From assembly GCA_020429395.1 (NCBI GenBank), contig JAGQLL010000006.1, positions 30,549-75,288 of the forward strand: 44,740 nucleotides of DNA. The letters are read 5' to 3'. This stretch comes from Candidatus Dojkabacteria bacterium (GTDB lineage Bacteria; Patescibacteriota; Dojkabacteria; B142; OLB20). A program made the translations under genes and the position numbers. The notes under the pieces are model-generated. The model worked only from the letters and a program-made list of their open reading frames with translations, searched no databases and was not told the origin of the DNA. Below are positions 3,220-39,665 of the stretch, piece after piece. Positions within the stretch are counted from its first letter, which is position 1. Each line of letters starts with the position of its first letter.

Positions 3220-3292
3220 GCTGGAGTAGCTCAGGTGGTAGAGCAACTGTTTCGTAAATAGTAGGTCGAGAGTTCGAATCTCTCCTCCAGCT
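3220..3292 (+). tRNA. tRNA-Thr (anticodon CGT)
   Basis: Cloverleaf folded by hand: acceptor GCTGGAG/CTCCAGC, D arm GCTC..GAGC, anticodon stem ACTGT/ATAGT with loop TTCGTAA, T arm GAGAG-TTCGAAT-CTCTC. No encoded CCA. Confidence 0.9.
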
Positions 3293-3316: not shown

Positions 3317-4363
3317 ATGTTTAACCCCGAATTATTAATAACAAATAAAATCCTTACTAATATAGTAAATATTGAAAAAGAGGTATTACTTTTAAATGCT
3401 TCCGACATTACAACTCAGCAAAAAATCAAATTGAAAGCCACTTCGAAAGCACTATACCTCTTTCACGCTTCGCATATGATCGGCTATAACATCGGTTTGA
3501 AGGATGCTGAAAAGATCAGTGAAGGTAGGGTTTTTGATCAAGAAAATCAGAATATAGTTGTATTAAACAATATAAGAAATCTTCACGAATTTATTCGCTC
3601 AAGCCTTCAAGATGAATACATAGACATTGATTCGAGTATTCTCTTGCATATGAATAAAATCTTGCTTTCGAATTGGAAAGAAGTTTGGGAGGTAAAATTC
3701 AGAAACCCACAATTAATTGAAGATACAGATTGGAACGATTGGTTGCACCTTACTGATAAAACTATTGAGCCATTAACTCTTCAAGATGAACTTAGGTCAG
3801 CTTTTGACTGGTATAAAATTACTACACAAAAGCTTTATCCACTTATCAGAATTTCAATTTTAATATATCGACTTATTCAAATTGCACCATTTTCTCATCT
3901 AAATAAATTTACGATAATTGGTGCTTCAGATTTCTTATTAAGAAAGAATGGATATATAAGTGACGATTATTTGTCTACTTTTCGACTTTTTGATTCAAAT
4001 AATTCTCTATTTAAAGACGTCATTGCTAAAACCAATGTTGAAAATCCAAATGATCTCACTCTTTGGGTTGAACATTTTACAGACTCTCTAGCCCGAGAAC
4101 TAAAATCAGTTTCGATGGATATTCAAGAATTCGCTAAAGCAAATCCTAAGCAGAAGAAAACATTTCTTGATCTAAATAAAAGACAGTTAAAAATCCTAAA
4201 ATATCTACAAACTATTCCAACTATCAAACGTGAAGATTATGTACAAATTATGGAGGTCTCAACTATGACAGCATTTAGAGATTTAAATGATTTAGTCACA
4301 AAAAAATTGCTTAAAGTAGATGGACGTGGTCGAGCTACTAGGTATCATTTGGCTAATCGTTAA
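3317..4363 (+). CDS. Fic-family-like protein with degenerate active-site motif and C-terminal winged-helix domain
   Basis: IAPFSHLNKFTIIGASDFLL sits where the Fic motif HPFxDGNGRxxR is expected, but His, Asp, Gly and Arg are all replaced. The C-terminus LNKRQLKILKYLQ...YVQIMEVSTMTAFRDLNDLVTKKLLKVDGRGRATRYHL looks like a wHTH. Confidence 0.45.
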   Translation: MFNPELLITNKILTNIVNIEKEVLLLNASDITTQQKIKLKATSKALYLFHASHMIGYNIGLKDAEKISEGRVFDQENQNIVVLNNIRNLHEFIRSSLQDEYIDIDSSILLHMNKILLSNWKEVWEVKFRNPQLIEDTDWNDWLHLTDKTIEPLTLQDELRSAFDWYKITTQKLYPLIRISILIYRLIQIAPFSHLNKFTIIGASDFLLRKNGYISDDYLSTFRLFDSNNSLFKDVIAKTNVENPNDLTLWVEHFTDSLARELKSVSMDIQEFAKANPKQKKTFLDLNKRQLKILKYLQTIPTIKREDYVQIMEVSTMTAFRDLNDLVTKKLLKVDGRGRATRYHLANR

Positions 4364-5903
4364 TCTGTAGAACTTTTCGAATATTTTCTATTGTATTTTT
4401 GTTTTTAATAATAGTCTGTAGGTCGGTATCTTTTGCCTTTTTTATGCCCTCTACCGATCCAAATGCCCTCAAGAGTTTCTTCTTAGTTATATTACCTATA
4501 CCAGGAATATCGTCTAAAACAGATGCGGTCTGGCCTAGCGAGCGAAGTTTTCTATGGTAATTAATTGCAAATCTGTGTGACTCGTCTCTGATTCGTTGTA
4601 GTAGAAAATATCCGTCAGAATTAAAATTAAGTCTTCTTTGAACAAATTCGAGTTCCCCTTCTTTGTCTTTTATATAGAAGATATCTTCATTTTGTTTAGC
4701 TAGACCAACAATAGGAATATCCACATTTAGACTAGATAGCACCTTGTAAACTGAACTTAGTTGTCCTTTTCCGCCATCAATTATTATAAGATTCGGATTA
4801 ATTGAAAAACTGGCATCAGGTTTATTGGATTTATGCTTAAAACGTCTAGATAACATTTCAGACATCATCGCAAAGTCGTCGGGAGTAGTTTTTGTTTTTA
4901 TTTTGAATTTTCTATATAAATTTTTGGCAGGATTTCCATCTACAAATACAATCATAGAACCTACTGCATTTTTTCCTTGGATATTTGAAATATCATAACA
5001 TTCGATTTTGAAGTTTTCTTGTACTTTTAAATCAAAATGATCTAGTTTGTTCACCAATTCATTTAATGCTTTCAATTTATGTTTCTTTTTTTCTTCATGA
5101 AATGCTGTCTCATCAGTGAATGTGTCTTCTATAGTAACTCTTTGTTTGATATATTCAAGATCTTGTATTTTATTCCTTAGATCAGCAGATTTCTCAAATT
5201 CATATCTTTTAGAAAACTTCTCTAGATCAGTTTTAAGTGCTTTTACAAGTTCATTATGACCCTTAGTAAAGAAAGTGTTTATACCTTTGAGATTTTGATT
5301 ATATTTTTTCTTAGAGACATATCCAGCACATGGTGCTTGGCAAAGACCCAAGTGAAAATATAGACAAGGTATTGGGTCTGAAGATTTTATAATTTTTTTA
5401 TTTGTATTAGGATCAACAATTTCATTTATAACTCTGTTACAGGTTCTGTAGGGATAGATTTTCCTCAAACGTGACAATATACGTCTAACAGGCATTGTAT
5501 AGTGGTAAGGTCCTAAATATACAGCATTCTTTCTTGTTTTTGAACGAACAATTTGTAATCTAGGGAAATCCTCGTTTTTATCAATCATTATCCAGATGTA
5601 GTTCTTGTCATCTTTCAGGTCTCGATTATAATATGGCTTATACTTTTTAATAAGATTGGTCTCAAGTATAAATGCCTCTAACTCAGAATCTGTTGAGATG
5701 TGTTCAATACTAACAATATTAGCAACAAGATTGTTAATATGAGGATCGGAGTGGATTTTTGAAAAATAACTAGATACCCTTTTTTTGATATTTTTAGCCT
5801 TACCTACATATATAACAGATTGGTTTATATCCCTATAAATATAACATCCCGGTGTATCCGGCAAATCTGGTAACTGGAGTTTTATGATTTCTTCGCTAGA
5901 CAC
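4353..5903 (-). CDS. uvrC: excinuclease ABC subunit C
   Basis: GIY-YIG N-terminus (GCYIYRD..VIYVGKAKNIKKRVSSYF), a UVR-like helix (ADLRNKIQDLEYIKQ), and a C-terminal endonuclease plus HhH region (IPGIGNITKKKLLRAFGSVEGI). GTG start. At 516 aa it is short for UvrC. Confidence 0.9.
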   Translation of the reverse strand: MSSEEIIKLQLPDLPDTPGCYIYRDINQSVIYVGKAKNIKKRVSSYFSKIHSDPHINNLVANIVSIEHISTDSELEAFILETNLIKKYKPYYNRDLKDDKNYIWIMIDKNEDFPRLQIVRSKTRKNAVYLGPYHYTMPVRRILSRLRKIYPYRTCNRVINEIVDPNTNKKIIKSSDPIPCLYFHLGLCQAPCAGYVSKKKYNQNLKGINTFFTKGHNELVKALKTDLEKFSKRYEFEKSADLRNKIQDLEYIKQRVTIEDTFTDETAFHEEKKKHKLKALNELVNKLDHFDLKVQENFKIECYDISNIQGKNAVGSMIVFVDGNPAKNLYRKFKIKTKTTPDDFAMMSEMLSRRFKHKSNKPDASFSINPNLIIIDGGKGQLSSVYKVLSSLNVDIPIVGLAKQNEDIFYIKDKEGELEFVQRRLNFNSDGYFLLQRIRDESHRFAINYHRKLRSLGQTASVLDDIPGIGNITKKKLLRAFGSVEGIKKAKDTDLQTIIKNKNTIENIRKVLQIND

Positions 5904-6165: not shown

Positions 6166-7266
6166 ATGAATTTGGAAATTGTAATCACATTAATTATCCT
6201 GGCTGTTTTGCTTTCGTTTATTCTCGCATTTCCGATTATTAGCTTTTTGTACAAATTTAAAATACAAAGAAATCTAGATGTTGATTTCTCTGTTTTAATT
6301 GAGTCTCGCAAACACAAGGTAGGGACACCTATTATGGGAGGTTTGATAATTATTCTAACAGTTGTGATTTTAAATTTAATTTTAAATTTTAACGAAACTA
6401 CAGCGGTTCCAATAATAATATTTATCAGTTTGGCACTAATAGGTGGTCTTGATGATGTTTTGAACTTATTTGGACAAAAACGAAAAGTCAGGACTTTAAA
6501 TAGAGTCATAACATTAATAAAAGTACATCGTAATAATCTTTATAGACTAAAATTGTTTCTAGGTCTCCCATGGATAACCTTCCACAGAGTTATGAGAATT
6601 TTCGAGTCTAACCCAGGGAAAGGTTTATTTGCTCACGAAAGATTACTATTACAACTTGCTAATGCTCTGGCTTTCTGTGTCTGGTTTATGACCTCCCAAG
6701 AAAGCCCAGAACAAATTGTACTGCCTTTTATTGGAATGGTCTCAATAGGTATTTTAATAATCCCTTTAATTATCGGAATAATTCTGGGAATGATAAATGC
6801 TGTAAATTTCTCTGATGGACTTGATGGATTGTCAGCCGGAATGTTGGTGAATGCATTTGTCGGATTTCTTATAATTGCTTTCTTTGATAATAACGTTCCA
6901 CTTGCATTGTTGACTTCCACAATTATTGGAGGTTTGGTGACATATTTGTACTTTAATATTCCTCCTGCTAGAGTTCAAATGGGTGATGTGGGTACTTATT
7001 CCTTAGGCGGACTATTAGCTATCATCGGCATAATGTTACAAAACCCGGTGGTACTTTTTATTATTTGTTTTCCATTCGTAGTCGAAGTTTCAAGTACTGT
7101 TATTCAAAGTGCTGTGAGAAAGCTTTTTGGAAGAAGATTGTTTAAGATGGCTCCCTTACATCATCATTTTGAAATGATGGGTTGGAGTGAAGAAAAAGTA
7201 GTTATGAGATTTTGGCTCTTCTCTAGTCTATTTACACTATTGGGGATTTGGGTGTATTTTTGGTAA
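6166..7266 (+). CDS. mraY: phospho-N-acetylmuramoyl-pentapeptide transferase
   Basis: GTPIMGGL, NAVNFSDGLDGLSAG, MGDVGTYSLGG and APLHHHFE. Polytopic membrane protein. Confidence 0.9.
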   Translation: MNLEIVITLIILAVLLSFILAFPIISFLYKFKIQRNLDVDFSVLIESRKHKVGTPIMGGLIIILTVVILNLILNFNETTAVPIIIFISLALIGGLDDVLNLFGQKRKVRTLNRVITLIKVHRNNLYRLKLFLGLPWITFHRVMRIFESNPGKGLFAHERLLLQLANALAFCVWFMTSQESPEQIVLPFIGMVSIGILIIPLIIGIILGMINAVNFSDGLDGLSAGMLVNAFVGFLIIAFFDNNVPLALLTSTIIGGLVTYLYFNIPPARVQMGDVGTYSLGGLLAIIGIMLQNPVVLFIICFPFVVEVSSTVIQSAVRKLFGRRLFKMAPLHHHFEMMGWSEEKVVMRFWLFSSLFTLLGIWVYFW

Positions 7267-7271
7267 AGCTT

Positions 7272-7280
7272 TGCTATAAT
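7272..7280 (+). promoter_or_regulatory. extended -10 promoter element (TGcTATAAT) for the leader and tRNA-Phe transcript
   Basis: Exact TGnTATAAT 6 nt after the mraY stop, about 35 nt upstream of the conserved leader. Confidence 0.45.
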
Positions 7281-7313
7281 TACACTTCGTTCTTTGATGT
7301 TACTCTTTCTAGT

Positions 7314-7419
7314 AAGTTTCAATGACCAAAGGGAATTGAAACTTAAGAGGAGGAACAAGCGGAAGCAGGAACTAAGTCGCGTTGCGATCTTAGTGGATGC
7401 TGAAGCTTTGTTTCGACGA
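7314..7419 (+). ncRNA. conserved structured 5' leader, copy A, directly abutting tRNA-Phe
   Basis: About 105 nt that align without large gaps to 29702-29806. 9-bp hairpin AGTTTCAAT/ATTGAAACT (7315-7323/7335-7343) with loop ..AAAGGGA; second hairpin at 7371-7394. Non-coding: the same frame in copy B hits a stop. Confidence 0.5.
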
Positions 7420-7492
7420 GCCGAGGTAGCTCAGCTGGTAGAGCACCCGCCTGAAGAGCGGGGTGTCGTCAGTTCAAGTCTGACCCTCGGCA
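7420..7492 (+). tRNA. tRNA-Phe (anticodon GAA)
   Basis: Acceptor GCCGAGG/CCTCGGC, anticodon stem CCCGC/GCGGG with loop CTGAAGA, T arm GTCAG-TTCAAGT-CTGAC. No encoded CCA. Confidence 0.92.
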
Positions 7493-7565
7493 TATATAAA
7501 GTTAATAATATGGGCACTTATCCTCTGATCAAGTTAGAGGAGTTCGGTCATTTAAAATAGACTTA

Positions 7566-7650
7566 GGGCGCTTAGCTCAGCTTCCGCCAGAGGCGGATCA
7601 GCCTTTGGCTGAGGTTAGAGTCCCGCTAAGCGGGATTTACACCGAGTAAG
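7566..7650 (+). other. tRNA-Val-derived 5' fragment carrying hairpin insertions (no T arm or 3' acceptor strand)
   Basis: 7566-7581 is identical to the first 16 nt of the intact tRNA-Val. 7582-7635 contains three 6-bp/3-nt-loop hairpins. TTTACACCGAGTA (anticodon loop plus 3' strand) then resumes, after which the homology ends. Confidence 0.6.
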
Positions 7651-7681
7651 TTATAGTTCATTAAAAATATATGATTTAGCT

Positions 7682-7755
7682 GGGCGCTTAGCTCAGCTGG
7701 TTAGAGCGACTCGTTTACACCGAGTAGGTCGGGGGTTCGACTCCCTCAGCGCCCA
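7682..7755 (+). tRNA. tRNA-Val (anticodon TAC)
   Basis: Acceptor GGGCGCT/AGCGCCC, D arm GCTC..GAGC, anticodon stem ACTCG/CGAGT with loop TTTACAC, T arm GGGGG-TTCGACT-CCCTC. No encoded CCA. Confidence 0.92.
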
Positions 7756-7824
7756 GCTAGGTCATAATATTCATGAATAAATCCCCATTAAAATACTTCG
7801 TTTACATTCTTTTATAATGAATCC

Positions 7825-7996
7825 GGGTGCTTAAATCAGCTTCCGCCAGAGGCGGATCAGCCTTTGGCTGAGGTTAGAGTCCCGCGAAGCGGGATTTACA
7901 CCAAGTAGGTCGGATTTATTGATGTAATAAATTGGAAGGGAGATTTCTCTCAAAGAGAGATATCTGTCTTGGAGACGACTTCCTCAGCGCCCACCA
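7825..7996 (+). other. ornate tRNA-Val-like element: acceptor-type closing stem, five inserted hairpins, genomically encoded CCA
   Basis: 5' GGGTGCT can pair with 3' AGCGCCC, followed by A-CCA. It carries the same 54-nt hairpin block as 7582-7635 (at 7841-7894, with 1 loop difference) plus a second ~60-nt hairpin-rich insertion (7914-~7973) in the T-arm region. TATAAT at 7813-7818 lies 6 nt upstream of the 5' end. Confidence 0.6.
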
Positions 7997-8358
7997 ATAA
8001 AATTGATATCATTAATAATCTGTATCCTCAATTCTTCCATAGAGTTAAATTTTATGGTTTCGCGAATAAATTCACCCAAAATCACCTTTACTGTTCGTTC
8101 GTATATGTCCCTGCTAAAGTCCAGTATGTGCACTTCAAATTGAGGTTTAGTTTCGCCGAACACAGCCCTTGGCCCATAATGAGCAACACCTTTATAAGGT
8201 TTCTTTTCAATGTAAATATCACAGGCATAAACGCCATACTTTAAACCTGAAATATCAATATTGGGTAAAATATTTGCAGTTGGAAAACCGATTTTTGTTC
8301 CATCCCCGGAACCTCTAGTCACTTTCCCTGAGAAGTTGGTTATCTGTTTCTTTCGCAT
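7984..8358 (-). CDS. riboflavin kinase (stand-alone RibF C-terminal-type domain)
   Basis: GTKIGFPTANI, GVYACDI, HYGPRAVFGE, FEVHILDFSRDIYERTVKV and FIRETIKFNSMEELRIQI match the bacterial riboflavin kinase domain. No FAD synthetase domain is attached. Confidence 0.8.
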   Translation of the reverse strand: MRKKQITNFSGKVTRGSGDGTKIGFPTANILPNIDISGLKYGVYACDIYIEKKPYKGVAHYGPRAVFGETKPQFEVHILDFSRDIYERTVKVILGEFIRETIKFNSMEELRIQIINDINFIGGR

Positions 8359-16713: not shown

Positions 16714-17183
16714 AGTCCTAATTTTTGAATAATACCACTTGAAGAAAAATCATCAGTTTTTTTCACGATAATCAACTTCCCTCCAATACTTTCAATTACT
16801 TCTTTTTTATTAACAATGCCTGGATCTCCTTCTACTACTGCTAAATATTCTGGTTGCATCTCCACTACGAACTTTCTTAGGTCTTCCCAAGATGATTGCC
16901 ATTTATGAATATAGTCAATTGTTTCTAAATGTGAGAGTGCTTCTGCTCTCTCATCTTGGTTAAAAATCGGTCTATTTGTGCCTTTCCTACGTTGAATTTC
17001 ATTATCACTAAGTATCACTAGTAGTACTTTTACATCATTAGAAATTTGGGTTTTAACTGAAGAAAAAAATCGAAGATGTCCCAGATGGAGAACATCGAAG
17101 CTGCCCGTGATTAGGACAACTTCGTGTTCTTTAAATATCTTAATAACATCTTTGTCGTTAATAATTTTTGACATTAGCCACAT
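16710..17183 (-). CDS. cytidylyltransferase-family nucleotidyltransferase (RfaE domain II / RibL-like)
   Basis: VLITGSFDVLHLGHLRFF (HxGH motif), RKGTNRPIFNQDERAEALSHLETIDYI, and C-terminal FSSSGIIQKL. Confidence 0.6.
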   Translation of the reverse strand: MWLMSKIINDKDVIKIFKEHEVVLITGSFDVLHLGHLRFFSSVKTQISNDVKVLLVILSDNEIQRRKGTNRPIFNQDERAEALSHLETIDYIHKWQSSWEDLRKFVVEMQPEYLAVVEGDPGIVNKKEVIESIGGKLIIVKKTDDFSSSGIIQKLGL

Positions 17184-20100
17184 TTTGAATATCCGCAGGA
17201 TCTACATAGTATACATCCTTCTGCATATTCTAAATCAGATCCACATTCGGGGCAATCTAACATGTCACCAAAATTATTATCTTTCGAATAGCCAGATTTT
17301 GTATCTTCTTGAATAACAACCGTTTGAGTGGTGACTGTAGTTTCTGCAACATATTCAATGTCAGCAGGATTTTGCTCTTCAGAACTTAAAGTAGGCTCAA
17401 TTGGAGTATTTGACATCCCATCATCAATTAGTTCTTCCTCCACTTCAGGGACTTCTTGCTCAGAAAACATTTTTATTTGCTCTCGTTGTTCTTCAATGTG
17501 CTTTTTCAAGATTTTCGCAACTGCATCAGGCACTGAGTAGATAAACATTCCTCGATTCAATGTAGGTGTGGATGTACGAATTCCTTGAAGTTGTTTCACT
17601 ATCGACTCAGGCTTGATTCCCGAGCGAAGTGCCATAGAGATCATCCTACCCAGTGCCTCAGTGTAACCTTGTGTGAAACTCCCACTTTTACCAATATTTA
17701 GGAATACTTCGACTATTCCTTGGTCGTCTTCATTTATTGTAATATACAGATCTCCTTGCTCGGTTTTCACTTCATAAGTTTTTCCTCTGGTTACTAGATC
17801 TCTTTTTCTAGGTTCTAAAACATTACGAGGCATTTGTATAGAAACAATTTCTTCTTTAGTTGAAGTGTTTGTGTCCTTTTTGGAGGTTCCTACTTGAAGC
17901 GCAGGGTCTTTGCTTCCATCTCTAAAAATAGTGATACCTTTACATTCCAGATCAAATGCTAGCTCGTATACTTTAGCAACATCTTGCCAAGTAGCATGAT
18001 TTGGTAAATTGATAGTTTTCGAAACTGCACTATCTACATATTTTTGGAAAACTGCTTGAATTTGAACGTGAGATTCTGGTGTAATTTCATGAGTTGTTAC
18101 AAAAACATCTACAATATTTGCGGGAATATTGTATTTTTCTGCAATATCCTTTAGATGCACTCCATTGGCAATTTCCGCCATTAATTCAGAAGAGTAAAAT
18201 CCACTCTTTTTGGCAAATGAGAGAAATTGTTTATCTATAACCTCTTGATCTACTCCTCCCATTGAATTCTTCCTTCTATAACCAAGAGAGAATATTGGTT
18301 CAATTCCTGGATTACAATCAGCGATAATTGAAATTGTTCCTGTAGGAGCAATAGTTGTGGTGCGAACGTTACGCATATATTTCTTTTCTGATTTCCAATT
18401 TGAATCATTAAATGCAGGGAAATTACCTTTTTCCTTCCCTAATTCTTCAGACGCAATGTGAGATTTGTCTTGTATAAATTTCATAATCTCACCAGCTAAC
18501 TTGATTGACTCCTCACTTCCATATGTAATGCCTAATTCTATTAATATATCCGCGAATCCCATAATCCCAACTCCAATATTTCGTGTTTTTCGAGTCATCT
18601 CCTCGATTTCTTTGATTGGATAGTTATTAACGTCAATTATGTTATCTAGAAACCTAACTGCAGTTGAAGTAACTTTTTCCAGATGAGTCCAGTTCACCAT
18701 CTTTAATTTTTCTTTAAGATCAAGTTTTACAAGATCAACGTAAGAGATGTTCTGTGGTACAGTTATGAACTTTGCTAAATTAATATGTCCCATATTACAA
18801 GTCTCGAATGGAATTAGTGGTTGTTCGCCACACGGATTTGTAGCATCCATAGTTCCGAGTTTTGGGGTGTTGTTCTTGGCCTCAGCACGATCTAGGAAAT
18901 ACATTCCCGGATCACCACTTTGCCATGCATGTTTTGCAATTCTTTCAAACATCTCACGAGCCTTGATTACTTTGTAGACTTTTTTATCACTTGGATCGAT
19001 TAATTCCCAGTCAAGATCTTCTTTAACAGCTTTCATAAAATCATTACTCGCTCCAACTGAAATATTGTAGTGAGTGATTGAGGTTAAATCGTCTTTACAA
19101 GATATAAAATCCTCTATGTCTGGATGACTTGCATTCAGAATAGCCATAGAACCTAATCCACGACCACCTCTACCTCTGATGGTGTCCTGAGCTCGATTAA
19201 ACATACGAATATATTCAACTGGACCGGCTGCGTTCTCTCCAGTAGTTTTCACCTTTGCATATGATGAGCGTATTTTTGAAAAATTGAAACCAGTCCCCAC
19301 ACCTCTTCGCAGACATTGAATATTCATATTTAATGTTTGGAAAATCGAGTCGATGGAATCGTCAATAGGCAAAACAAGACATTTCGACATAATAGTTTCT
19401 TCCCCCATACCAGCCCATAATAATGTACCTCCACAGTAAAACTTCCCGTCGTTCATTACATCAAAAAATTCTTTTGCAATCTTTTTCTTCTTTGATGATG
19501 CTTCCTTGCTTGCTACAAAGTCAGCAATTCTTTGCCAAAGTTGTTCGGGTGATTCATTTATTTCATCGTTGTCATTCTTTTTCAATGCTCTTTTTTCAAG
19601 AACTTGAAGTGCATTTTCAGTCAATGAATGTAAAATTTTGCTATCACTCTTTGGATTCTCTTCTTGTTTACTGCTCGATAAAACTTGGAAATTCTTAGAA
19701 CCATCTCTATAAATTGTTATTCCCTTACAACCCGATTCCCATGCAAGTATGTACGCTTTTCTGACTTCATCAATTGAAGCGTCATTTGCAAGATTTATGG
19801 TTTTTGATACAGCAGCATCTACAGAATTTTGAGCAGCAGCTTGCATCTTCACATGCCACACAGGTTCAATATCATGTGTAGTGACAAATATCTTTTTCGC
19901 TTCTGCTGGAACTTCAGGAAAACTATCCAAATGACCACCATTATCGGCGATTTTTTTCATTAATTTTTCGGAATAGAAATCATGTTCTCTGGCATAGGCT
20001 TCGAATTCTTCATTTACATAGAATAGTGATTTTCTATCTTCTTGACCTTCGTCTTGATAGAAACTTTTCCTTTCATAAACCAATGAAAAGATTGGTTCGA

Positions 20101-21478
20101 TTCCGCTTGATGTATTTGAGACTAAACTCAATGTTCCTGTTGGAGCAATCGAGGTCATGGTAGCGTTTCTGACCTTTCTACCCATCTCATCCCATTTACT
20201 ACCTTCAAAACCAGGGAATACTCCTCTTTCTGTAGCCAATCTTTCTGATTCTTTTGTAGAAGCTTCTTGAATAAAGGCAATAATCTTCTTAGCGAGATTT
20301 ACTGCTTTGTCACTGTTATAAGCGATACCCATTTTATAGAACATGCTTCCCAACCCAACAACACCCAAACCTAGTTTTCTTGTTTTCTCAACCTCATCGG
20401 CGATTTTCTTAAGTGGGAAATCACTCAAATCGATCATATTATCTAAAAAGTGTGTTGCAGAATATGCCGACTTTTCTAGTAAGTCCCAATCAATATCCAT
20501 ACCTTCTTTTGTTTCTACAAGATGTGTTGGAAGAACTATTGAGCCAAGATTACATGATTCGTAGGATCGCAGTGGTTCTTCTCCACATGGGTTTGTGGCT
20601 TCGATAACTCCCAAAGGTTTAGTGGGGTTTGCATTTTGTGTTGTGTCTAGAAAGAATAAACCGGGATCAGCGCATTCCCATGCTTTTTCACATATCAATT
20701 CGAAAACTTCTCTCGCTTTTAGTGACTTTACTTTTTTTTCGTTTCTGGGATTAATTAAATCATATTCCTTATCTTCACGAACGGCGTTCATAAATTCATC
20801 TGTAACTCCAACAGAAATATTAAAATTTCGGATTGTATCATCTTGACCTTTAAGATTAATAAAATCAATAATATCTGGATGATTGATGTTTAGGATAGCC
20901 ATGTTTCCACCTCCTCTTTTCTTCCCCTGTAGCACTTGATCAAAGGCTTGTGAAAAAGTTTTAATAAAGTGAATCGGTCCAGCAGCAACATTTGGTGTAC
21001 CCCCAACTTCATCTCCTTTGGGTCTTATGTGAGAAAAATTAAATCCAGTTCCTCCGTTATTCTTTTGAACCAAAGCAGCTTCTTTCATAGTATCGAAAAT
21101 CGATTCTAAATTGTCTTCAATGGGTAATACAAAGCAAGATGAAAGCTGTCCTGTTCCATCAATCTTATTTCCTGCTTCATATAGGACCCTAGAACCTGGA
21201 AGAAATCGATTCTCGGCCATTATTTGATAGAATTCCTTTGAAGTTCTCTCAACAACTCTTTGCTTTCGCGCTTCAGAACCTTTGACATATTTTGAGTCTT
21301 CAGAAGCCATAGCTGTTGCTACTCTCCAAAACATTTGTCGAGGGGTTTCTATCGCTTCACCTTTTGAATCTTTAAGCAAATGGCGTTTTTTCATCACTTC
21401 AAGTGAGTTAGGAGCGATATTTGGTTCGGAAAGACCTTTTGGTGGATCCACGAGACGTTGCTTATTGTTACTAGACAT
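17174..21478 (-). CDS. nrdJ: class II (adenosylcobalamin-type) ribonucleotide reductase, two complete catalytic cores fused in tandem plus C-terminal domain and zinc ribbon (1434 aa)
   Basis: Every core motif occurs twice: [16 protein letters not shown] / [37 protein letters not shown] / [39 protein letters not shown] / [35 protein letters not shown] / [17 protein letters not shown]. These are followed by [30 protein letters not shown] and [26 protein letters not shown]. Confidence 0.9.
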   Translation of the reverse strand: [1434 protein letters not shown]

Positions 21479-29897: not shown

Positions 29898-29931
29898 TAA
29901 AACATAAAATGCAATATAATTAGTACAACAT

Positions 29932-38481: not shown

Positions 38482-39382
38482 TTTGTGTAAAACATATTTT
38501 GAAAATGAAAATGTTTCTTTGAAAGATTACTATTCAGATAATATCTATACATGGTGCACAAACTGTGGAAATTACGGAATAGCAGCAGCAACAAAAAGAG
38601 CTTTGGTTGCTGAGAATATAGAACCTAAAGATACATTTATGTGTTTCGATATTGGATGTAATGGCAATGGATCTGACAAAATAGGTGGCTATCGTTTACA
38701 TGGACTACATGGTCGTGTAATCCCTGTTGCTACTGGTGCAGCACTGGCAAATAGGAATCTTTCAGTGATCGCTTCAGGAGGTGACGGTGCAACTTTAAGC
38801 GAAGGAATTGGTCATTTGGTCCATGCTATAAGATCAAACTACAATATTACATTCCTTATGCACAACAATTGTAATTATGCACTTACCAAAGGTCAAGCTT
38901 CAGCATCGACTAGACAAGATGTACCCATGGATTCGTCACCAGATGGAACACCCTCTGATACTTTAAATTTCATGAATTTTGTTCTGAGCTTAGGAGCATC
39001 ATTTGCGGCAAGGACTTTCTCTGGAAATGTACAACAAATGACAGAAGTAATTAGAGCAGGAATTCGTCATAGAGGTTTTTCAGTCATAGAGATACTCCAG
39101 AATTGTCCAACATATAATAAAGACACTACACACGAATGGTACCAAGATAGGATTTACGATACTATTGAAATAAAGGATTATGATAATTCAAACTTTGATT
39201 CTGCGCTAAATATTTCAAAAGATATGTCTGAACGAATTGCAACAGGCGTGTTATTCGCAAATCCCAATTCCGTGCCTTTTGATCAAAGACTTGAAAATCG
39301 TCAAAATTATTCAACAGAACTAGTAGATGAAGTAAAAAGTTACAATCAAATAAGTCAGGAGCTTTTCAGTAGATTCATATAA
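38474..39382 (+). CDS. korB: 2-oxoacid:ferredoxin oxidoreductase, beta (TPP-binding) subunit
   Basis: WCTNCGNYGI and ASGGDGATLSEGIGHLVHAIRSNYNITFLMHNNCNYALTKGQ (TPP motif). 8-nt overlap with the alpha gene. Confidence 0.85.
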   Translation: MSSLCKTYFENENVSLKDYYSDNIYTWCTNCGNYGIAAATKRALVAENIEPKDTFMCFDIGCNGNGSDKIGGYRLHGLHGRVIPVATGAALANRNLSVIASGGDGATLSEGIGHLVHAIRSNYNITFLMHNNCNYALTKGQASASTRQDVPMDSSPDGTPSDTLNFMNFVLSLGASFAARTFSGNVQQMTEVIRAGIRHRGFSVIEILQNCPTYNKDTTHEWYQDRIYDTIEIKDYDNSNFDSALNISKDMSERIATGVLFANPNSVPFDQRLENRQNYSTELVDEVKSYNQISQELFSRFI

Positions 39383-39388
39383 CTCTAC

Positions 39389-39665
39389 GTCTCTCCGTGG
39401 TTTAATCACGGAGTCCCGTATACTCTCCCAATCGCACTTAAAGTAGAATCGAGATTCCGTGGGAAAGCCACGGAAAGACCTTGAGTATTTCGTTTTCCCG
39501 CTGTCTCTCCGTGCTTTAAGCACGGAGTCTCGTATACTCTCCCAATCGCACTTAAAGTAGAATCGAAATTCCGTGGTCAAGCCACGGAAAGACTTTGGGT
39601 ATTTTGTTTTCCCGCTGTCTCTCTGTGCTTTAAGCACGGAGTCTCGTATACTCTCAAATTCGTAA
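39389..39665. repeat. 114-nt tandem direct repeat, about 2.4 copies, hairpin-rich
   Basis: Units start at 39389, 39503 and 39617. Units 1 and 2 differ at 9 of 114 positions by my count. Each unit contains CTCCGTG(G/C)-TTTAA-(T/G)CACGGAG and TTCCGTGG-5 nt-CCACGGAA hairpins. Confidence 0.9.

Follow-up and report, generated by a model that had tools for sequence, protein, structure and literature searches.

A valine tRNA gene of Candidatus Dojkabacteria stands between two look-alikes whose arms and loops are replaced or interrupted by hairpins, and the question raised by this locus is whether the look-alikes are working RNAs or the remains of something else. The locus occupies positions 7566-7996 of the window, by which we mean the whole stretch of 44,740 nucleotides (nt) analyzed here, and consists of element 1 (7566-7648), the intact tRNA-Val gene, and element 3 (7825-7996). 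A preliminary description had proposed that element 3 is a closed, CCA-ending tRNA-mimic RNA of ~170 nt, naming as further possibilities decaying duplicates hit by a small hairpin element and scars of integration and excision; the sequence features on which it relied are all present where it placed them. We argue that the two look-alikes are most likely broken, hairpin-riddled leftover gene copies and not working RNA, and that the locus is probably what decay has left of a small selfish element, resident in tRNA genes, that encodes a GIY-YIG nuclease. The region 7400-8000 is 100% identical in three independent metagenome assemblies, and the locus is thus not an assembly artefact.

The comparison with three near-identical relatives (loci L227, L228, and L229) appears decisive at the level of sequence. 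Their flanking GT4 and EamA genes are 97.2% and 98.5% identical to those of the window, the DNA that begins at the GT4 stop and ends where the open reading frame (ORF) described below starts (window 7267-7805) is 98% identical, and element 1 and tRNA-Val are identical. At the position of window 7812-7876, i.e., the 5' half of element 3, these relatives nevertheless carry a full GIY-YIG ORF of ~86 to 106 amino acids (aa). Homology between the window and L227 is lost after codon 13 of this ORF (7811) and comes back at GAG-hairpin-TTTACACC, which makes element 3 a chimera. The window retains GIY-YIG codons 1 to 13 only (7773-7811), and the parts at 7825-7894 replace the body of the nuclease gene. 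We propose that a segment resembling the upstream unit of the element (tRNA positions 1 to 17, a 30-nt double hairpin, GGTTAGAG, and a further hairpin) overwrote the ORF from codon 14 onward and became joined to an old downstream pseudo-tRNA.

The orthologous copies of element 3 do not behave like those of an RNA gene. The window and locus L013 share the truncated arrangement. Identity between them is 85 to 88% in the truncated ORF, the Phe-Val spacer, and the leader, compared with 66% in element 3, in which a 20-nt deletion removes the third hairpin of L013, two substitutions break pairs in the first hairpin of its copy of 7842-7871, and the hairpins of the T-arm insert (7914-7975) are not kept. 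The three changes that distinguish 7825-7841 from the intact gene are the same in L013, and the segment is absent from L227. The L227 counterpart of the hairpin in 7872-7894 has decayed to ACACGCAAGGCGGGA. The 3' part of the pseudo-tRNA (7895-7983) is 78.7% identical to L227 and the next 150 nt are 99.3% identical, so that the variable cassette ends sharply at the tRNA 3' end. A functional RNA would call for orthologous sequence or structure kept with compensatory changes; judged in this way, element 3 gives no sign of selection on RNA. Decayed remnants at orthologous loci were one of the findings that the preliminary description itself had set against a tRNA mimic, and L227 and L013 supply them.

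The CCA end has a simpler origin. At L017, whose flavokinase is 72% identical, an intact tRNA-Val ends ..TCAGCGCCCACCAAT (also written ..AGCGCCCACCAAT) on the flavokinase stop, and element 3 ends at this very junction. What closes element 3, the 3' acceptor strand with CCA, is thus the 3' end of the chromosomal tRNA-Val. Its last 13 nt (7984-7996, CCA included) are flavokinase coding sequence on the opposite strand, where the protein ends ..IGGR* and the GGR* codons are the complement of the acceptor strand and CCA. Hence the CCA of element 3 was rejected as the mark of an RNA gene. None of the four tRNAs in the window encodes CCA, as had been noted.

Among the relatives the nuclease gene comes and goes as expected of a homing endonuclease: L017 has none, L011 has three copies, L227, L228, and L229 have a full one, and the window has the truncated one. 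The L011 array comprises three upstream 5' units, the intact tRNA-Val, and three tandem units of ORF plus pseudo-tRNA, each made of GCTAGGTCATAATA, a small ORF, GGTTAGAG, TCCCGCGAAGCGGGA, TTTACACCGAGTAGGTCG, a TCCCGCCC..GGGCGGGA hairpin replacing the T arm, and TCAGCGCCCA; its first ORF encodes an 86-aa GIY-YIG domain, whereas an in-frame TAA interrupts the second and only a decayed version remains of the third. The leader GCTAGGTCATAATATTC precedes the ORF in L011, L227, and L225 and a decayed ORF remnant in L104.

Element 1 would be a typical upstream 5' unit. It runs through tRNA positions 1 to 17, TCCGCCAGAGGCGGA and TCAGCCTTTGGCTGA (7583-7612), GGTTAGAG, TCCCGCTAAGCGGGA (7621-7635), and TTTACACCGAGTA. 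A 5' unit with an identical spacer occurs once in L227, and L011 holds two further ones and a variant; L013, L017, L102, and L104 lack it. Its first 17 nt (7566-7582) are identical to 7682-7698 of the intact gene, and the spacer upstream of it is orthologous to the spacer preceding the intact tRNA-Val in L013 and L017. Lying inside the Phe-Val operon, element 1 is almost certainly part of a precursor transcript.

The 54-nt block shared by elements 1 and 3 differs at one loop base, as reported before, and its 44-nt core is present in two exact copies in the window (0 expected from shuffles); each of its three single hairpins occurs nowhere else in the window. This near-identity most likely reflects copying between the elements, i.e., gene conversion, instead of selection on RNA.

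The nuclease family and its hairpins

The 86-aa ORF of L011 matches Pfam PF01541 (GIY-YIG) with E = 1.3e-14, the ORFs of L227 and L225 receive the same Pfam call, and residues 3 to 80 of the 86-aa protein align to the UPF0213 structures 1zg2 (E = 3.8e-9) and 1ywl (E = 1.5e-4). A known defence system or phage family was rejected as a home for the nuclease, since it has no PADLOC match and its match to a PHROG "endonuclease" is weak (E = 6e-4); it has no NCBIfam model either.

When GTDB genomes were scanned with the 86-aa protein, 215 relatives were found, of which the best 80, almost all from Bacteroidota, were examined and 60 were scanned for tRNAs. In 49 of these 60 loci the ORF is preceded, on its own strand, by an intact tRNA, mostly 40 to 130 nt away, with Ala-GGC as the commonest species and Met, Leu, Pro, Lys, Asp, Ser, and others besides. 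By blastn, tandem copies of tRNA positions 1 to 25/27 lie upstream of the ORF, and copies of positions ~45 to 75, often with 13 to 27, lie just after it; the missing part is the anticodon arm. Reading of L019, L028, and L050 revealed what stands in its place, namely a TCCCGAT-loop-ATCGGGA hairpin, and in L019 and L011 the stop codon of the ORF falls inside the tRNA-derived D-arm segment. The same stereotyped layout, with 5' copies upstream, the ORF, and a hairpin-substituted 3' copy right after the stop, is found on at least nine tRNA species in distant phyla. Altogether, the loci show a recurrent, stereotyped module in which a minimal GIY-YIG ORF is combined with an intact tRNA and with partial tRNA copies that carry a specific hairpin; it is found on many tRNA species and in distant phyla. 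The module differs between strains that are otherwise nearly identical, can be arrayed in tandem, and ends by decay in relics of the kind seen in the window.

This hairpin, which we call the clamp, is the hallmark of the GIY-YIG element family, and the Dojkabacteria version, TCCCGC-NAA-GCGGGA, is the one seen at 7621-7635 and again within 7872-7894. TCCCGA..TCGGGA hairpins occur in 67 of the 80 loci (145 copies); the density of TCCCG..CGGGA is 1.01 per kb around ORFs and 0.014 per kb elsewhere in the same loci, and such a hairpin lies within 80 nt after the ORF in 52 of 80. The stem is invariant and the loop variable. One loop occurs 14 times as GAAAAA and 3 times in the opposite orientation as TTTTTC, a pattern that suits a module of DNA better than an RNA tied to one strand.

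In three Bacteroidota loci (L068, L070, and L071), ARAGORN calls named "tRNA-???" (with the 2-nt anticodon tt) and "tRNA-Stop (tta)" adjoin GIY-YIG ORFs. At least one TCCCGAT..ATCGGGA hairpin lies inside each of these odd calls, indicating that the hairpin was misread as an anticodon arm. Spurious annotations of suppressor tRNAs or of undetermined tRNAs probably arise from such misreading.

The 30-nt double hairpin in the D loop (TCCGCC..GGCGGA followed by TCAGCC..GGCTGA) has a wider distribution, from which we conclude that it is a separate, independently dispersed mini-element. At least 120 metagenome contigs contain its 21-mer TCCGCCAGAGGCGGATCAGCC, in contexts unrelated to one another and mostly at non-tRNA sites, and all 30 nt are kept, apart from variation in the second loop, in 66 distinct contexts of 33 to 65% GC. 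These include AT-rich intergenic sites (some with 6- to 8-nt flanking repeats), the centre of long palindromic repeats of the repetitive extragenic palindrome (REP) type, and tRNA-like sequences that carry the module, facing either way, in their D, anticodon, or T loop. A short palindrome at many unrelated sites is what is expected of a dispersed repeat, whether REP-like or of the miniature inverted-repeat transposable element (MITE) kind. The earlier idea of decaying duplicates hit by a small hairpin element was thus essentially right, and scatter over non-tRNA sites was another finding that had been set against a tRNA mimic. Viral contigs yielded only four matches of the 21-mer, so the module is not mainly phage-borne.

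An intact tRNA lies within 120 nt of the module in 11 of 68 contexts. We rejected a fresh insertion into a tRNA gene, since excision of the module restored a callable tRNA in none of the 68, which implies that the hosts are partial copies and not freshly hit genes. Seating of the module on a stem made by its immediate flanks was likewise discarded, as it is not enriched (1 context, control mean 1.08).

A small GIY-YIG ORF lies within about 150 nt of the module in 5 of 80 loci. In the four loci with identifiable flanks, the nuclease-linked module sits in the D or anticodon loop of a partial tRNA copy: L111 (Asn) and L145 (Ser) have the order partial tRNA with module, ORF, intact tRNA, and L113 (Asn) and L109 (Lys) the order ORF, intact tRNA, module-bearing copy. 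Proteins associated with the clamp hairpin, those of Dojkabacteria included, share the C-terminal motif IKKMKSRKYIE, and those associated with the 30-nt module carry FLKSGxGRxFL and form a separate clade. In this small sample, judged by these motifs, hairpin type appears to follow nuclease clade.

Additional hairpins, TGAGCC-ATA-GGCTCA and TCAGCC-TTT-GGTTGA, were seen in L013 (4700-4745) and L104 (4860-4930, minus strand), nested within the 30-nt module, in its second hairpin loop; hairpins appear to insert repeatedly into hairpin loops.

Competing explanations and a possible mechanism

It is in our estimation very improbable that element 3, perhaps together with element 1, is a functional tRNA-like non-coding RNA, whose transcription would start from the TATAAT at 7813 and whose ornate fold of several hairpins, closed by the acceptor stem and terminated by CCA, would serve for instance as a decoy, primer, or enzyme substrate. 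The fold of 7825-7996, whose thermodynamic modeling had been suggested, is predicted to be very stable (-77.6 kcal/mol, z = -6.3 versus shuffles); the acceptor-type stem GGGTGCT/AGCGCCC can pair over 7 bp (6 Watson-Crick and 1 G-U) and is followed by A-CCA; the TATAAT noted earlier is present at 7813-7818, 6 nt upstream of the element; the acceptor stem of L013 is still pairable through G-U wobbles; and, between its two copies in the window, the 54-nt block has changed less than the sequence on either side of it. However, any string of perfect GC hairpins folds in this way, and the hairpins concerned are mobile and found at many unrelated sites. The TATAAT is not called by a consensus promoter scan. 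ARAGORN calls the intact tRNA-Val and neither element, neither reaches the gathering score of any family in Rfam 15, and a permissive Rfam scan of 7250-8050 gave chance-level matches only, the best on element 3 being RtT at 17.3 bits against a 45-bit cut-off. Both elements fail the cloverleaf required by RF00005 and ARAGORN, since they lack a T loop and, as previously recognized, the anticodon stem cannot form, its 5' strand being replaced by the clamp hairpin. After its insert, element 3 continues with CGACTTCCTCAGCGCCCACCA, and its CCA and 3' strand occupy the position of the L017 tRNA-Val 3' end in flavokinase coding sequence. Moreover, the 5' half is absent from L227, where the nuclease ORF stands instead between flanks 97 to 98.5% identical, the 3' half shows 21% divergence even though the strains compared are nearly identical, and in L013 the third hairpin is deleted, the first broken, and the T-arm hairpins not conserved.

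Integration scars were the other proposal, and here scars proved right and their integrase-type origin did not. Partial tRNA copies around an intact tRNA are the classic signature of an integrase island, and next to the locus L017 has an unrelated island at which the 3' end of tRNA-Phe is duplicated. Still, attL/attR-type remains of an island or prophage integrated into tRNA-Val and excised from it are the least credible of the explanations considered: no integrase or recombinase was found among the scanned neighbours (GT4, flavokinase, EamA, HrcA, UvrC, and others) or the called genes of related loci, the duplication extends to both the 5' and the 3' parts of the tRNA, no more than about 0.1 to 0.4 kb of DNA is inserted per unit, and arms replaced by a conserved hairpin are not a product of integrase recombination. 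Scars of a small GIY-YIG nuclease element fit instead.

Less remote, and yet unlikely, is an ordinary tandem duplication and decay of tRNA-Val with independent hits by MITE-like hairpins, the GIY-YIG gene being a bystander (e.g., through expression or integration bias). Two of our observations lean toward such a reading and also weigh against the nuclease element that we favour. No nuclease gene lies near 75 of the 80 copies of the 30-nt module, many of which are at non-tRNA sites, and mobilisation by the nuclease is therefore putative. The smooth divergence gradient away from the element that classical co-conversion predicts was looked for against L227 and was not seen; there is instead the sharp cassette boundary at the tRNA 3' end and a single 150-nt patch in the flavokinase gene (8134-8283), 84.7% identical to L227 and 98 to 99% on either side, which looks like a recombination mosaic near the element. 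Further points weigh against the nuclease element. A flanking direct repeat of at least 5 nt accompanies the 30-nt module in 9 of 66 contexts (control mean 1.2, maximum 6), many of these contexts being locally repetitive. The nuclease is a catalytic domain of ~80 aa with no obvious DNA-binding domain, occupied alleles still hold an intact and presumably cleavable tRNA, which leaves the logic of immunity incomplete, and element 3, with a TATAAT upstream, may be transcribed. Against a bystander stand the same layout on at least nine tRNA species in distant phyla, a hairpin density ~70-fold higher beside ORFs than elsewhere in the same loci, a hairpin type that tracks the nuclease clade, and a stop codon of the ORF lying inside the tRNA-derived D-arm segment (L019 and L011).

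We thus return to the nuclease element, for which we propose the following model. The intact element, as represented by L227, L011, and L225, is a stand-alone GIY-YIG nuclease gene of ~86 aa placed directly after a tRNA or tRNA-like 3' end and bracketed by partial copies of that tRNA, whose arms are replaced or interrupted by specific GC-rich hairpins. The nuclease would break a tRNA gene, and repair would proceed from the element-bearing allele, with the tRNA-derived segments as homology arms. The element would bring an intact tRNA copy, so that the host keeps tRNA function, and displaced or duplicated copies would carry a hairpin in place of the cleavable arm. Site recognition could rely on nucleic acid structure and stem sequence, which is a guess. 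Repeated break and repair could build tandem arrays, as reported for T4 SegB (PMC2330249 and PMC13096335). In the window, the chromosomal tRNA-Val would originally have begun with 7566-7582 and ended with 7976-7996, whose CCA-bearing sequence still overlaps the flavokinase stop; all that lies between these two segments would derive from the element, the now-functional tRNA-Val (7682-7755) included. The nuclease gene being dead in the window, nothing of the locus still works except the ordinary tRNA-Val.

A broader hypothesis, which we hold tentatively and with more doubt than conviction, is that the window holds a dead copy of a widespread, cross-phylum, and hitherto undescribed class of selfish elements. 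Each would pair a minimal GIY-YIG nuclease of ~80 to 90 aa with a cognate hairpin, either TCCCG..CGGGA or the 30-nt TCCGCC..GGCGGA-TCAGCC..GGCTGA doublet depending on the clade. Such elements would colonise tRNA genes, keep one copy intact, and convert duplicated arms or loops to their own hairpin, with hairpins also spreading solo. The nuclease would not need a long DNA site, recognizing instead nucleic acid structure together with the short sequence of a stem.

For annotation, element 3 should not be entered as an RNA gene; it is to be described as a pseudo-tRNA and a mobile-element scar, 7682-7755 being the only working Val gene of the locus. The module offers one explanation for the thousands of small "GIY-YIG nuclease family protein" genes beside tRNA genes in Bacteroidota and the candidate phyla radiation, as well as for truncated or "undetermined" tRNA calls near GIY-YIG genes (L068, L070, and L071) and for assembly breaks at these loci. 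If the link between nuclease and hairpin is real, it would constitute a minimal structure-guided homing system and a new source of tRNA gene duplication and turnover.

Features of the locus and its surroundings

Table 1. Parts of the tRNA-Val locus and the adjoining genes, in window coordinates
Feature	Position	Strand	Remarks
tRNA-Phe(GAA)	7420..7492	+	First gene of the Phe-Val tRNA operon; ARAGORN, Rfam 70.3 bits
Element 1, 5' end	7566..7582	+	tRNA-Val positions 1-17: acceptor 5' strand, D-stem strand, AGCT
Double-hairpin mini-element, copy 1 (30 nt)	7583..7612	+	TCCGCC-AGA-GGCGGA + TCAGCC-TTT-GGCTGA, in the D loop at AGCT/GG
GGTTAGAG	7613..7620	+	3' part of D loop and D stem; matches 7699-7706
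Clamp hairpin TCCCGC-TAA-GCGGGA	7621..7635	+	In place of the 5' strand of the anticodon stem
TTTACACCGAGTA and 33-nt spacer	7636..7681	+	Anticodon loop and 3' stem strand; the spacer ends the 5' unit
Intact tRNA-Val(TAC)	7682..7755	+	ARAGORN; Rfam 70.3 bits; no encoded CCA
GCTAGGTCATAATATTC	7756..7772	+	Constant leader ahead of the GIY-YIG ORF in every occupied allele
Truncated GIY-YIG ORF, MNKSPLKYFVYILL*	7773..7817	+	From alignment with the full ORF of L227
Element 3, 5' end	7825..7841	+	Diverged tRNA-Val 1-17, 3 changes versus the intact gene
Double-hairpin mini-element, copy 2 (30 nt)	7842..7871	+	Orthologous copy in L013 substituted in both hairpins
GGTTAGAG and clamp hairpin TCCCGC-GAA-GCGGGA	7872..7894	+	Deleted in L013 (20-nt gap)
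TTTACACCAAGTAGGTCGG	7895..7913	+	Anticodon loop, 3' stem strand, variable loop, T-stem start; homologous to the downstream pseudo-tRNA of L227
AT-rich hairpin insert (62 nt)	7914..7975	+	T-arm position; 21-22% diverged in L227 and L013
CGACT-TCCTC-AGCGCCC-A-CCA	7976..7996	+	Remaining T arm, 3' acceptor strand, CCA
Riboflavin kinase (flavokinase) gene	7984..8358	-	Pfam PF01687, E = 4.7e-32; stop 7984-7986

ARAGORN and Rfam together place four tRNAs in the window: Thr at 3220, Phe at 7420-7492, Val-TAC at 7682-7755, and Leu at 29931. The tRNA-Phe gene is present at every orthologous locus and the intact tRNA-Val is identical in sequence across all the Dojkabacteria loci read, its 3' flank in the window being of the element type. 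The gene order GT4, tRNA-Phe, tRNA-Val, flavokinase, EamA, HrcA-GrpE-DnaK is common to the relatives, among which the gap between GT4 and flavokinase ranges from about 0.6 to 1.75 kb. Protein sizes in the window are 516 aa for UvrC, 240 aa for HrcA, and 124 aa for the stand-alone flavokinase; such small proteins, together with the gene content, indicate a member of the candidate phyla radiation, and homologs of the flavokinase bear the name Candidatus Dojkabacteria. Many short-read contigs end about 128 nt beyond the flavokinase gene, i.e., at the repeat.

The Phe-Val operon and its relatives hold other features of their own. A leader of ~130 nt (7285-7419), running from a conserved TGcTATAAT promoter-like box to tRNA-Phe, is a conserved structured RNA with two hairpin domains and compensatory changes in 13 of 42 predicted pairs across six Dojkabacteria loci. 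It has no Rfam match, and the 88-aa ORF called over it at 7294-7560 is probably spurious. A lone CRISPR repeat was rejected for this leader, given that the Rfam CRISPR-DR matches are at chance level and that the leader is conserved and structured. In L017 (4445-5400, minus strand), an insert of ~0.9 kb with ORFs of 195 and 54 aa follows directly after tRNA-Phe and is bounded by a duplicated tRNA-Phe 3' end (..cctcggcatttaat twice), constituting a second and different tRNA-linked insertion in the operon. L225 has an extra decayed tRNA-Val-like remnant (3410-3490), TTAGAG-TGTCGCGAAGCGCTA-GTAAATCACCGAATAGGTCG..TCAGCGCCAA; beyond it come an ORF of 327 aa and a gene for a DNA methylase (3806-5288), and the hotspot can thus hold larger cargo too.

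Elsewhere in the window, GC-rich perfect hairpins are confined to three places, namely the tRNA-Val locus, 13059, and an unrelated repeat at 39393-39588, on which count a genome-wide habit of forming such hairpins was rejected. The repeat (39393-39650) comprises ~2.3 tandem copies of a unit of ~114 nt, contains the GC hairpins CTCCGTG..CACGGAG and TTCCGTGG..CCACGGAA, lies in the gap between ORFs ending at 39382 and 39672, and is unrelated in sequence to the tRNA-Val hairpins. A ribonucleotide reductase of 1434 aa (17174-21478, minus strand) matches the large-subunit N and C Pfam domains twice, in alternation, which suggests that the domains are split by an intein or other insertion.

Comparison with known systems

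Integrase islands in tRNA genes resemble the element described here in restoring a functional tRNA and leaving a partial copy at the far end; the element differs in having no integrase, in duplicating both 5' and 3' parts, in its tiny units, and in its hairpin-substituted copies. With tRNA-like structured RNAs (viral 3' elements, mascRNA, and the bacterial Y-RNA domain), element 3 shares an acceptor-type closing stem and a CCA end, whereas it lacks a T loop and an Rfam match, is not conserved in sister strains, and owes its 3' end to a real tRNA gene. The tyrT-linked RtT of Escherichia coli is a repeat that follows a tRNA gene in tandem copies and includes a portion of that tRNA's 3' end. Element 3 is not a member of this family (RF00391), the match over 7833-7996 being below threshold (17.3 versus 45 bits, E = 1.6), and RtT differs from the module in having neither hairpin substitution nor a nuclease gene. 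Small GIY-YIG proteins of the UPF0213/YhbQ type, such as BH0048 (1zg2) and EF2693 (1ywl), belong to the same sequence family as the 86-aa ORF; both structures were named by their depositors only as hypothetical proteins, and no paper tying the family to tRNA genes or hairpins was found in the literature searched. Likewise, no description of a module of nuclease plus hairpin-bearing tRNA copies was encountered in the open-access literature searched, and this cross-phylum module appears undescribed.

The closest parallels come from phage endonucleases and from bacterial palindromic repeats. Seg proteins are larger than the nuclease of the module and have a separate DNA-binding domain, whereas the protein here is a catalytic domain of ~80 aa alone. 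The hosts here are cellular chromosomes of Dojkabacteria and Bacteroidota and not phages, and the hairpin-substituted partial tRNA copies have no SegB counterpart. The resemblance lies in the gene and its surroundings: T4 SegB is a free-standing GIY-YIG nuclease whose gene lies among or beside tRNA genes, and genes of the Seg type are present or absent between close relatives (PMC2330249), as in the module. SegB is also reported to drive tandem amplification of an adjacent tRNA-containing segment in T4 (PMC13096335).

Among dispersed repeats, the RAYT partner of REP sequences is a different kind of transposase and not a GIY-YIG nuclease, and the small dispersed repeats of cyanobacteria offer a further parallel. 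Like the hairpins described here, REP/REPIN-RAYT and other miniature palindromic repeats (PMC3116915 and PMC3733652) are short, GC-rich, and found at many sites; a subset adjoins a small nuclease- or transposase-like gene that could mobilise them in trans, and variants track protein clades. The hairpins of the module sit, in contrast, in loops or arms of tRNA copies, one of them substituting for a tRNA arm, and the same 30-mer is common to genomes of 33 to 65% GC. The module thus differs in defining respects from its closest known systems, the Seg-type endonucleases and the REP/REPIN-RAYT repeats.

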